Below, one piece after another: positions 6,202 to 14,654 of a stretch of DNA of 64,000 bases. How positions within the stretch are numbered: position 1 is the stretch's first letter; every line of letters begins with the position of its first letter. The stretch lies in the NCBI RefSeq assembly GCF_001677475.2, contig NZ_CP015229.1; one strand, written 5' to 3'. The notes beneath the pieces were generated by a model. That model did no database searches. It saw only the letters and a list, made by a program, of their open reading frames with translations, and was not told where the DNA came from. The translations under genes were made by a program, and so were the position numbers. This DNA comes from Escherichia coli. Lineage in GTDB: Bacteria; Pseudomonadota; Gammaproteobacteria; Enterobacterales; Enterobacteriaceae.

Positions 6202-7428
6202 TCAGTTCGATACCTGGGGTATTCGACGACGACGTAGACTGTTCCATGAATAGATTGCGTTGAATAACACTACGCCAGCGGTGACGAGAAATACCGCTCT
6301 GAAACCGTAGTTCGCTGAAATCGCTGCTCCCATCAATGGTCCGGTAACGTTGCCAATATCACGAAACGATTGGTTATAGCTGAAGATACGCCCGGCGATC
6401 TGGTTGCTCGAGTTATAAACTAACAGTGTCTGTACGGCGGGGAGTAGTGCACCATCGGCGGCACCGAGCAAAAAACGTAAAATCCCAAGTTGTAATGGCG
6501 TCTGAACGTAAGACATTGGGATCAACAGCAGTACAGAAAAGATCAGCGCCGTAATCAGGATCTTTTCGGGTCCGATTCGATCGCCAAGTTTGCCGAGTCG
6601 TGGTGCACTTAGCAGAGCCGCCACGCCTGGCACCGAGGCGATCATGCCACTGATAAAGGCGACGTTACTGACGTTACCCGCCAGTTCGCGGACATACAGC
6701 GTCAGAATGGGGGCAATTGAGCCCGTCGCCACCTGGATGATTAACGTGGTGACAAACAGGCTGAGTACCAGTTTCGGGTTTTTAAGTGATGTCACCACTT
6801 CCCGCATGTGCAGCATCTCTTTTTTGCTGACCGGCTGGAATTTTTCTCTGATGCAGAACAGGGTGACGAAAAAGCAGAGTATGAGCACACTGGCGGTAAT
6901 AAAGAATACCGGACGTAAGCCGTAGCTATCGGCGAGCAAACCGCCAGCCATTGGGCCGAGCAACGCGCCGCTAACGCCGCCTGTGGAGAGCGTACCCAGC
7001 GCCCAGCCGCTTTTATTACGCGGTACTTGTGTGGCGATAAGAGCATTAGCGTTGGGGACAAATCCGCCAAGTAAACCAAGAAGCGCCCGCAGGATCAAAA
7101 ACTGCCAGATATTTTGTGCCAGTCCCATCAACACCATCACGATGCCCATGCCGAGAGCAGAGCGTAATAGCATGAGTTTTCGGCCTTTACGGTCGGCGAG
7201 TCCACCCCAAAACGGTGAGGCGATGGCCGAAAATAAAAATGTAATGCTGAAGACAATACCGGACCACATATTCAGGGCGGAGTGGCCGGTAACGCCAAGC
7301 TGCTCAACGTAGAGGGGTAAGAAGGGCATTACCAGACTGAAGGCGGCACCGGTAAGAAAACAGCCTAGCCAGGCGACGATCAGGTTTCGTTTCCAGTTTA
7401 TAGGGGTGTCATTTTCACAGGGTGACAT
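6202..7428 (-). CDS. mdtG: MFS multidrug efflux transporter MdtG (YceE)
   Basis: 408 aa, about 12 predicted TM segments, MFS motif [10 protein letters not shown]. Confidence 0.92.
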
Positions 7429-11406: not shown

Positions 11407-12525
11407 TTATTGGAAGCGGGAAAGCCTGAATGGCGTTAAATCAAAATCGCTTTTTTTGTCTTGCGCAAAATCGGCAGCTATTTCCCCTAAAACTGACGCA
11501 AATTTAAAACCGTGCCCACTCAGGCCGGTAATGAGCAGTGTATTATCGTGGCCGGGTAGGGTATCGATAATAAAATCTTCGTCAGGCGAATTATCATAGG
11601 TGCAGGCAGCGCCGTACAGGCAGCAACCGATACCCGGCAATACATTGCGCAAGAACGGGAAGGCTTCTGACCCATCACTGGCCACTTCCGCAAACGGAAC
11701 ACGTTCATCCGCTGAATGGATAACCTGGCCTCCGTTATGTTTGCCAATCTTCAACGCGTCGTTTTCTGCCGGAAAACCATAATATTGATCGCCATTGGGC
11801 AGTTCACCGGTAAACGCCGGGAATTTATTCTTCACGCTATAGCGGCCATCGGCCTGATACCAGGCAAATACTTTACGTACGGGCTGGACAGGCAGCTCCG
11901 GGAGCAGGTCTTTTACCCATGTTCCCGCGCAGACAATCGCTTTTTTCGCCTGATACTCACCGTCAGCTGTTTCAATAGTTACGCCATCATCGCCATGACG
12001 AATTGCGGTGACCGGGCAGTTGAACAGTTGCGCACAGCCCGCTTCCTTCGCCAGTTGGATCCAGGTTTTAATCGCCAGTTCGCTGCGCAAAAAACCGGAA
12101 TCAGTCTCAAATAAGCCGATGTAGTTGTCCGGGACGCGTATTTCTGGCCAGCGGGCCATAATCCCTTGCGCATCGAGCTTTTCAACGTTGAGTTGCCACT
12201 GTTCGGCGCTGTGGGCGACGTTGGCGAGAAATGCGGAGTCAGCCGGGCCGAGGTTAATGACACCAGAGCGTACAAAAATGGGATCATCTTCGTTGTGGCG
12301 GGAGAGATCATCCCACAGTGTTTGCGCGCGGAGGACCAGCGGGACATACTTTTCGCCTTCACCATAAGCATGGCGAATTAATCGCGTATCGCCGTGGTGG
12401 CTGCCGTGTTGATGCGGTGGCATATGGGCGTCGGTCATTAGCACGTTTAAACCGGCGCGGGTTGCATAATACCCGGCGGCAGCGCCTACGGAACCGCTGC
12501 CAATAATGATGAGATCGTATTTCAT
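11407..12525 (-). CDS. solA: N-methyl-L-tryptophan oxidase SolA
   Basis: 372 aa; FAD-binding [14 protein letters not shown]-terminus. Confidence 0.93.
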
Positions 12526-12639: not shown

Positions 12640-12894
12640 TTAATGACGCCGATACTCGTTTACCTGGAAATCACCGGATTCAATTTTGGCGATTCCTGCT
12701 TCTAATATCGAAATAAATTGTCTGGCAACATCAGTGGTTAACCAGAGCGTTTGACCAACTTCAGTCCCTTCCTGCTCGGACTTATTTGGGGTCTGGTAGT
12801 GCAAACGCAACATCAGCGCATCATAGCTATCAACGGTGCTGATGTCCCACCCTACGAGCGGATGAGTCTGAATGACTTCATTATTTTTTTCCAT
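12640..12894 (-). CDS. bssS: Biofilm regulator BssS (YceP)
   Basis: 84 aa MEKNNEVIQTHPLVGWDI...; matches recalled BssS. Confidence 0.88.
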   Translation of the reverse strand: MEKNNEVIQTHPLVGWDISTVDSYDALMLRLHYQTPNKSEQEGTEVGQTLWLTTDVARQFISILEAGIAKIESGDFQVNEYRRH

Positions 12895-13183
12895 CATGGC
12901 CCCCTAATTCGTGTTACTAGACAACGTTATTCGAGGTTCAATGCGTTTTTATCTGAAGCAACTTCAGTATACCAATAAGTAAGGGTATTCACCGAATTTT
13001 TAAAGGGGGAAACAGATAAATTTTTGCTTTTAAGATTTATATGAACAATAAAACAGCATGTCATTCATATTTTTTTAGCATATTGTGCAATTATTTTGAG
13101 GAAGTGTAGAAATTTTGTGCTCGAAATTTGTAAGTAAAATAAAAAAGCCGGGGCGACCCGGCAAAAACAAAAATCACTGCGTA

Positions 13184-13429
13184 TTATTCGCTGACAAACC
13201 AGTCATCGGCGCTTTCCCACGTTTCCTGGAGAATTTCGCTAATGCGCTGTTTATCTTCTTTTGTCGCGCCAATAACCGATAAATTATTCGCTGCGGCATA
13301 ACGTACCGATACGTGGCCTTCATTGTCAGGAAACGCATACTGAATACGGCGGGAAAGTTCGCCAGCCAGGGCGTCAATAGCCCCAGCTGGCAATGGAGAA
13401 GTTTTCGCTATGGTGACTTCAATTCGCAT
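13184..13429 (-). CDS. dinI: DNA damage-inducible protein DinI
   Basis: ORF 13184..13561; true start MRIEVTIAKTSPLPAGAIDAL (81 aa). Confidence 0.9.
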   Translation of the reverse strand: MRIEVTIAKTSPLPAGAIDALAGELSRRIQYAFPDNEGHVSVRYAAANNLSVIGATKEDKQRISEILQETWESADDWFVSE

Positions 13430-13450
13430 AATAGCCCCCTGTTGAATATA

Positions 13451-13466
13451 CTGGTTATTTATACAG
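13451..13466 (-). promoter_or_regulatory. LexA (SOS) box upstream of dinI
   Basis: Minus-strand CTGTATAAATAACCAG fits CTG-N10-CAG consensus, about 22 nt upstream of dinI start. Confidence 0.8.
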
Positions 13467-13502
13467 GTAAAATAACCTAATGACAACAGGAAGCTACGAT
13501 TT

Positions 13503-14549
13503 TTATTGTTTAACGGACCAGCGTACCGTTTCCCCGGCGAGGAATGGCACCAGTGTGTCATCAGTCAGTGCGATGCTTTCAGCAACCTGTTGCTCTTCAC
13601 GTACCAGTTCGATGAATGTGTCGTTGACCGGCAACCCATAGAACTGCGGGCCGTTTACAGAACAGAATGCTTCAAAGTGCTGCAAAGCATTCATCTCTTC
13701 AAAGACGGTAGCGTAACTGCCCAGCGCGGTTGGGGCGTTGAAGCAGCCCGCGCAGCCGCAACTGCTCTCTTTGCGATGACGTGCATGTGGCGCAGAATCC
13801 GTACCGAGGAATACTCGATTAAAACCGCTGGCGACCAGTTCACGCAATGCCTGTTGGTGAATATTGCGTTTGAGGATGGGTAAACAATACAGGTGCGGAC
13901 GCACGCCACCAACCAGCATATGGTTGCGGTTAAACATCAGATGCTGCGGAGTGATGGTGGCAGCCAGCCGTTCATTTCCGTCACGGACATAGTCGGCAGC
14001 ATCTTTGGTGGTGATGTGCTCAAAAACGACTTTCAGCGCAGTCAGGCGCTGGCGCAGCGGTTCCATCACGCTTTCTATAAAACGCGCTTCACGATCAAAA
14101 ATGTCGATATCTGCATGTGTCACTTCACCATGCACCAGTAGCGGCATACCGATTTTTTCCATGCGCTCAAGTACCGGCATGATTGCGTCAATTGACGTCA
14201 CGCCGTGGCTGGAGTTAGTGGTTGCGTTTGCCGGGTAAAGTTTTGCAGCGGTGAACACGCCTTCGTTAAATCCGCGCTCCAGCTCATTAGGATCCAGCGA
14301 ATCTGTTAAATAACAGGTCATCAATGGGGTGAAATCGTGCCCGGCAGGTACGGCGTCAAGAATACGCTGGCGATACGCCACGGCAGCCTCAACAGTGGTC
14401 ACGGGCGGAGCCAGATTGGGCATTACGATAGCCCGTCCATAAATTTCGCTGGTATATGGCACGACAGTTTTTAACATGTCGCCATCGCGGAGGTGAAGGT
14501 GCCAGTCATCTGGGCGGCGGATCTTTAATACCTGGGATGGTGCAGTCAT
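13503..14549 (-). CDS. pyrC: Dihydroorotase PyrC
   Basis: 348 aa; metal-binding HLHLRDG motif. Confidence 0.95.
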
Positions 14550-14654
14550 TAATCTCTATGCTCCGGCTGAAGGGATGTTTTTGCCGGACACAAAGGATAA
14601 GCGGAAACGTTTTCCTTTGCACGAAAAATAAAGGGCGCGAATGCGCCCTCGTGA

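Follow-up and report, generated by a model that had tools for sequence, protein, structure and literature searches.

The LexA operator of dinI in Escherichia coli and a candidate read-through hairpin at the pyrC-dinI junction

The pyrC-dinI locus

The window analysed here is the whole 64-kb stretch of DNA, and the genes that surround the site under study all lie on its minus strand. The gene dinI (13184-13429, ATG at 13429..13427) encodes a protein of 81 amino acids followed by a stop codon, as indicated by its open reading frame, by Pfam and by the RefSeq annotation of matching E. coli genomes. Its product is DinI, recognized by Pfam family PF06183 with 102.1 bits against a cut-off of 24.2 (E 2.1e-29). 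The gene was reportedly first defined by Lewis et al. in 1994 through the high-affinity LexA site considered below, and the SOS box of E. coli K-12 dinI (b1061) is said to have been described by Fernandez de Henestrosa et al. in 2000. DinI itself reportedly modulates RecA filaments, according to Yasuda et al. in 1998 and Lusetti et al. in 2004. Directly upstream of dinI and co-directional with it we found pyrC, encoding dihydroorotase (13503-14549, minus strand), whose stop codon occupies 13505..13503. On the other side of dinI lie bssS (12640-12897, minus strand) and solA (11407-12525, minus strand). An Rfam search also identified the PyrC leader (RF02372, 68.7 bits) at 14550-14599 on the minus strand.

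Read on the minus strand, the spacer from the pyrC stop codon to the dinI start codon is TAA-ACAATAAAAATCGTAGCTTCC-TG-TTGTCA-TTAGGTTATTTTACCTG-TATAAA-TAACCAGTATATTCAAC-AGGGGG-CTATT-ATG. The AGGGGG motif (13435..13440, minus strand), placed 5 nt before the ATG, is the dinI Shine-Dalgarno sequence, and this region (ACAGGGGG or GGAGG) is conserved among dinI orthologues. A terminator scan reported an intrinsic terminator for dinI, formed by the stem-loop GCCGGGTCGCCCCGGC followed by TTTTTT (13147..13162, minus strand), and found none on the minus strand between the pyrC stop and the dinI start (13430-13505). Transcripts of pyrC may therefore run into the dinI promoter, its operator and the LexA protein bound there.

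The locus is very close to that of the reference strain MG1655. The 131 bp comprising the end of pyrC, the spacer and the start of dinI are 100% identical between the window and MG1655, and the 3.5 kb around the box show 98.9% identity. An 801-bp query taken from the locus matched 5425 of the 5426 complete E. coli genomes, none of them exceeding 99.0% identity. We also noticed a 3-nt indel relative to MG1655 at 13168-13181, just downstream of the dinI terminator in the spacer between bssS and dinI.

The LexA operator of dinI

The core of the LexA (SOS) box, CTGTATAAATAACCAG, is located at 13451..13466 on the minus strand, where the plus-strand letters are CTGGTTATTTATACAG, the reverse complement of which is CTGTATAAATAACCAG. 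The full 20-mer operator, ACCTGTATAAATAACCAGTA, covers 13449-13468 (minus strand, read from 13468 to 13449). Both triplets, CTG and CAG, are intact, and the spacer between them, TATAAATAAC, contains A or T at 9 of its 10 positions, considering the consensus TACTG(TA)5CAGTA. The assignment is supported by the sequence, by its heterology index (HI), by identity with MG1655, where the equivalent of the box core is 1121509-1121524, by the published table of LexA sites (PMC3009722 Table 4) and by conservation. The preliminary description had read these 16 letters as a canonical LexA box in front of dinI with the form CTG-N10-CAG, and the minus-strand core, its score, its identity with MG1655 and the DinI-encoding gene downstream all agree with that reading.

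As the bare CTG-N10-CAG pattern is found 25 times in the window against 14.2 ± 4.2 times in shuffled sequences, most matches falling in G+C-rich coding sequence, it does not discriminate LexA sites, and scoring by heterology index was used instead. We built a Berg-von Hippel matrix from 17 other LexA sites (PMC3009722 Table 4), leaving dinI out. With this matrix the dinI 20-mer obtained an HI of 4.95, ranking sixth among the 18 known sites, between dinD and yebG, in a leave-one-out series that ranged from 0.6 to 12.8; the published value for dinI is 4.8 (PMC11228462 Table 1). Matrix scoring was one of the checks proposed in the preliminary description, which had named an unfavourable score as speaking against a LexA box, and no such score appeared. 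Across all 20-mers of the 64-kb window the mean HI was 36.5 (sd 5.7) and the best unrelated site scored 11.18. The two best unrelated candidates, at 53469-53488 and 869-888 (HI 11.2 and 11.4), lack an intact CTG or CAG triplet and were rejected as LexA sites.

We then considered the conservation of the box, using dinI homologues that were fetched without reference to it: genome contigs were scanned with a degenerate DNA pattern for the C-terminus of DinI (W-E-x-A-D-D/E-W-F), giving 120 loci, of which 106 had a DinI tblastn match and 103 had enough upstream sequence. Of these 103 homologues, 100 had a LexA box (HI < 7.5) in the 120 nt that precede the ATG, with a median HI of 2.75, while that threshold was reached by 1.25% of all 120-nt windows of the homologue loci, dinI sites included. 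The box was present in all 73 orthologues that have pyrC directly upstream, and prophage- or plasmid-like copies of dinI carry it as well. The distance from the 20-mer to the ATG was 18-22 nt in 87 loci, with a mode of 19 nt, which is the distance in the window. No box was found within the 120 nt upstream of the homologues of Yersinia thracica, Photorhabdus thracensis and Yersinia artesiana; these may be fused or differently organised genes, as their alignments start past the first residue of the protein. The spacing is larger in Trabulsiella odontotermitis (locus 6942-7073), where the LexA box, with ACAGGGGG after it, is 60 nt, and not about 19 nt, upstream of the aligned dinI ATG. This suggests either that DNA was inserted past the ribosome-binding site, ahead of the coding sequence, or that the gene has another start.

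Within E. coli, the 73-bp spacer between pyrC and dinI is identical in 3740 of 5420 complete genomes. In two variant strains that were inspected, the spacer changes fall at positions 1-2 of the 20-mer (aligned to 13467-13468) and the CTG/CAG core is intact. The 20-mer begins with GCCTG in E. coli O157:H7 FRIK2533 and with AACTG, nearer to the LexA consensus, in E. coli strain 200177 (HI 2.75 with the matrix made here). A further complete genome, that of E. coli ST2747 (NZ_CP007394.1, locus 2500-2593), has no dinI; the deleted segment extends from precisely the 5' edge of the LexA box to a point upstream of bssS.

Published experiments also support SOS control of dinI. The 25-mer present at this site is tabulated as the LexA motif upstream of the UV-induced dinI (PMC3009722 Table 4), AZT induces dinI 49-fold with a 39-fold dependence on cleavable LexA (PMC11228462), binding of LexA to the dinI operator was observed by EMSA (PMC5999292), and dinI is counted among genes with a known SOS box (PMC6590174). 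In Salmonella the dinI box stands 19 bp from the ATG with an HI of 4.0 (PMC8072944). In Klebsiella pneumoniae the LexA box overlaps the mapped dinI transcription start site, and mitomycin C lowers the LexA occupancy seen in ChIP (PMC10907235).

All these results bear on whether the box might have arisen by chance as a CTG-N10-CAG palindrome, or be no more than the A+T-rich -10 region of dinI, devoid of any role in repression. The excess of bare pattern matches in the window over the roughly 14 expected from shuffles, and the fact that the A+T-rich spacer of the box also serves as a -10 element, are in line with such an explanation. It is nonetheless exceedingly improbable, considering the gap between the score of the dinI box and the values of at least 11.2 for every unrelated site of the window, the persistence of the box in homologues that include prophage-like copies with unrelated upstream DNA, and the published EMSA, lexA dependence and ChIP. 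The site at 13451-13466 is thus almost certainly the already known LexA operator of chromosomal dinI, and the box itself is nothing new; its confirmation mainly validates the earlier recognition of the pattern and corrects two details of its position.

Both details concern the surroundings of the box. The only good sigma-70 promoter in front of dinI consists of a predicted -35 element, TTGTCA (13481..13486, minus strand, read from 13486 to 13481), supported by sequence and by conservation in orthologues, and a predicted -10 element, TATAAA (13458..13463, minus strand, read from 13463 to 13458), supported by sequence and by the 17-nt spacing; among 72 syntenic orthologues the TTG of the -35 at this spacing is nearly invariant. 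As the -10 element lies within the LexA box and the predicted transcription start, at about 13452/13451, falls in its CAG half, the box does not sit between the dinI promoter and the start codon, as previously described, but contains the -10 and the predicted start. Likewise, it does not overlap the 3' end of pyrC: it begins 36-37 nt past the pyrC stop when counted from the edge of the 16-mer at 13466, or 34 nt from the edge of the 20-mer, and at its other end 21 nt separate the 16-mer, and 19 nt the 20-mer, from the dinI ATG. The statement of an overlap may have come from a 125-aa open reading frame (13184-13561, minus strand), the only one that overlaps the box. This frame prolongs dinI upstream, in phase and through the spacer, as far as the 3' end of pyrC, and we rejected it as a gene because the ATG at 13429 is the start in every homologue.

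A simple promoter scan reported two weak matches on the plus strand, no more than in shuffles, and did not report TTGTCA/TATAAA because it demands T at position 6 of the -10, while this hexamer ends in A. The alternative -10 TATATT (13450..13445) was rejected, as it would have ATTTTA as its -35 (2 of 6 matches) and would leave no room for the Shine-Dalgarno sequence.

Given that the -10 and the predicted start site are inside the box, LexA most likely represses dinI by occluding this region, a mode of action that we infer, together with the start site in E. coli, from the position of these elements. A LexA dimer binds the 20-bp palindrome ACCTGTATAAATAACCAGTA over the -10 and the predicted start, and would exclude RNA polymerase so that dinI stays off. 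Upon DNA damage, RecA filaments trigger the self-cleavage of LexA, the vacated operator allows strong transcription of dinI, and the DinI made after damage in turn modulates RecA filaments.

This arrangement resembles that of known systems. The E. coli K-12 dinI SOS box (b1061) shows no difference: its 20-mer, the 131 bp around it and its spacing from the ATG are all the same. The chromosomal and Gifsy prophage dinI boxes of Salmonella Typhimurium are likewise 19 bp from the ATG (HI 4.0-5.3), and that of Klebsiella pneumoniae overlaps the transcription start site and shows LexA occupancy by ChIP; in the spacer and in the flanking sequence, the Salmonella and Klebsiella boxes depart from the window at a few bases. 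The operators of sulA, umuDC and recN likewise place CTG-(AT-rich N10)-CAG over the core promoter, with occlusion and early strong induction. While recN and lexA have several boxes, dinI has a single one. At the other end of the gene, the small RNA DinR of Klebsiella is released from a longer dinI 3' end, whereas the 3' untranslated region in the window is only about 45 nt long (stop codon at 13184, terminator at 13162-13147).

The hairpin predicted at the pyrC-dinI junction

We also looked at the RNA that would be made if transcription from pyrC continued into dinI. RNA folds, duplex energy and covariation point to a minus-strand hairpin (13497..13431) whose tip holds the LexA box. The predicted 5' arm, GUAGCUUCCUGUUG (13484..13497, minus strand, read from 13497 to 13484), combines an anti-Shine-Dalgarno sequence with the TTG of the -35, and the predicted 3' arm, CAACAGGGGGCUAU (13431..13444, minus strand, read from 13444 to 13431), covers the dinI Shine-Dalgarno. 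Between them (13453..13477, minus strand), the folds also gave an inner stem, in which the right half of the LexA box, AAAUAACC (13460..13453), is paired to GGUUAUUU (13477..13470). This inner stem is not claimed as conserved, as 45% of its cells were paired across 35 Enterobacteriaceae.

In the window, the junction fold of 91 nt has an energy of -26.7 kcal/mol, the 131-nt region has a z of -3.65, and the duplex between the two arms reaches -21.7 kcal/mol with a z of -6.6, none of 300 shuffles being as good. The predicted dinI start falls past the 5' arm, so that both arms would be present only in a transcript that comes in from pyrC. The predicted probability that the Shine-Dalgarno is unpaired was 0.001 in the read-through RNA and 0.575 in the RNA starting at the predicted dinI start site, compared to 0.24 when the 5' region was shuffled. 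The Rfam search returned no family covering the junction hairpin, the PyrC leader being the sole match nearby, and a literature search on pyrC-dinI read-through found no paper on it.

Comparison across genomes showed that arm complementarity follows the gene order. In the 73 loci with pyrC upstream the median duplex energy was -19.0 kcal/mol (-11.6 in shuffles) and the median z -2.78, whereas in 23 non-syntenic copies of dinI the corresponding values were -10.1 kcal/mol (-9.3 in shuffles) and 0.03, in statistics that ignore kinship between the genomes. At most 3 of 300 shuffles were as good in 35 of the 73 syntenic loci, against 1 of the 23 non-syntenic ones. Complementarity also varies with the length of the junction: where the gap between the pyrC stop and the dinI ATG is at most 95 nt it is strong (median z -3.12) and a separate terminator is seen in 2 of 57 loci, while at longer gaps it is weak (z -0.61) and a terminator-like hairpin is found in 6 of 16 (Mann-Whitney p 2e-5 for complementarity at short versus long gaps). 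The strong hairpin is thus confined to dinI genes that have pyrC directly upstream without a terminator of its own, and it is absent from prophage-like copies.

The position of the anti-Shine-Dalgarno sequence changes between families. In Enterobacteriaceae it is upstream of the TTG of the -35 (GCCCCCUGUUG / CAACAGGGGGC), whereas in Erwiniaceae and Serratia it is downstream of it (UUGCCUCCGG / CCGGAGGC and UUGCCCUCG / CGGGGGCAA). The A of GGAGG faces a U in 10 of 11 cases, and in Pluralibacter both arms carry a change (CGGCUCCCUG / CAGGGAGCCG). In an alignment of 70 junctions, which was fitted with a covariance model and thus leans towards the structure, and in which independent lineages are few, all 14 pairs were changed on both sides, and compensatory cells numbered 86, compared to 33 ± 4 in shuffles. 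For covariation, this fitted alignment scored 0.282 against 0.167 (0 of 500 shuffles as good), falling to 0.04-0.07 when the partners were slid. Within Enterobacteriaceae covariation was modest (0.121 against 0.105, 9 of 500 shuffles), because the 9 bp of the core, which are near-invariant, hardly vary, and RNAalifold on 35 Enterobacteriaceae gave a weak consensus of 6 pairs (-2.6 kcal/mol). Of the two strands, the sense strand gave the better fold in 47 loci and the antisense strand in 25 (p 3e-5), which points to an RNA and not to a DNA cruciform. These predictions suggest that the junction hairpin has probably been selected as an RNA structure, in connection with read-through from pyrC.

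Possible roles of the junction hairpin

Such a hairpin could act on translation, as an insulator, or serve pyrC as a weak terminator or 3'-end hairpin, or do both. The reading that we favour, although tentatively and at somewhat short of an even chance, is that pyrC read-through RNA would hide the dinI ribosome-binding site, so that DinI would be made only from LexA-controlled transcripts. Such read-through RNA, being untranslated, might also lie open to Rho. This reading agrees with the absence of a detected intrinsic terminator between the pyrC stop and dinI, with the contrast in predicted access to the Shine-Dalgarno between read-through RNA and RNA from the predicted own start, with the fold energies and the arm duplex in the window, and with the stronger complementarity of syntenic over non-syntenic loci and of short over long gaps. 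The shift of the anti-Shine-Dalgarno between families, the U that faces the A of GGAGG, the compensatory changes and covariation of the fitted alignment and the sense-strand bias in folding argue in the same direction. Against it stand the modest covariation within Enterobacteriaceae, where the core is near-invariant, the weak RNAalifold consensus, an alignment that was fitted to the structure and holds few independent lineages, statistics that ignore kinship, and the absence of the hairpin from Rfam and from the papers found in our literature search. In addition, both arms are constrained anyway, one as -35 and the other as Shine-Dalgarno. A serious, if somewhat doubtful, possibility is that the complementarity has no function and arises as a by-product from the C-rich surroundings of the -35 and the G-rich Shine-Dalgarno. 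Shuffled 5' regions indeed pair with the G-rich Shine-Dalgarno fairly well (mean probability of being unpaired 0.24-0.33), and the weak covariation within the family is what a by-product would give; on the other hand, non-syntenic dinI genes with a similar promoter and Shine-Dalgarno show no complementarity, the compensatory changes between families and in Pluralibacter would not be expected, and neither would the dependence on the length of the pyrC-dinI gap.

It is unlikely, by comparison, that the hairpin is a transcription terminator or 3'-end stabiliser of pyrC in which the dinI promoter and ribosome-binding site are packed by chance. Its base is G+C-rich and starts at 13497, 6 nt after the pyrC stop (13503), it occurs only where pyrC has no separate terminator, and the 3' arm is followed by UUUUAU in Pantoea and Erwinia and by AUUUAU in Enterobacter, all of which would suit a terminator. 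However, an intrinsic terminator combines a G+C-rich stem-loop with a U-tract, and in the window the stem is present but no U-tract comes after the 3' arm, the sequence there being UAUGCGAAUU. Moreover, the terminator scan reported nothing at the hairpin, and, at 66 nt and with large internal loops, the hairpin does not look like a typical intrinsic terminator. The favoured reading, in which the folded read-through RNA would shield the dinI ribosome-binding site, extends the explanation by a LexA operator and does not compete with it.

If this shielding were true, the junction would show how a tightly repressed SOS gene can be protected from the transcription of a metabolic gene that lacks a terminator. 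It would also offer a signature for searching other compact junctions, namely an anti-Shine-Dalgarno beside the -35 that precedes the point where the gene's own transcripts begin. Finally, it would be a chromosomal counterpart of the fold-back inhibition of IS10 and IS50, with a repressor operator at the tip of the hairpin.

In those elements, read-through transcripts reportedly fold and sequester the ribosome-binding site of the transposase, as described by Davis, Simons and Kleckner in 1985 and by Schulz and Reznikoff in 1991. The predicted logic at dinI is the same, as the gene's own start lies past the 5' arm and only read-through RNA would occlude the Shine-Dalgarno. The difference is that IS10 and IS50 encode a transposase, while the dinI hairpin concerns a chromosomal SOS gene, carries a repressor operator at its tip and has a role that is predicted. 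A second relative is found at the other end of pyrC. In the PyrC leader, a hairpin that depends on the start site frees or hides the pyrC Shine-Dalgarno, the choice of start site being sensitive to CTP. The leader (RF02372) is alike in being a start-site-dependent hairpin over a Shine-Dalgarno, but it acts on the 5' end of pyrC itself and its sequence is unrelated to that of the pyrC-dinI junction hairpin.
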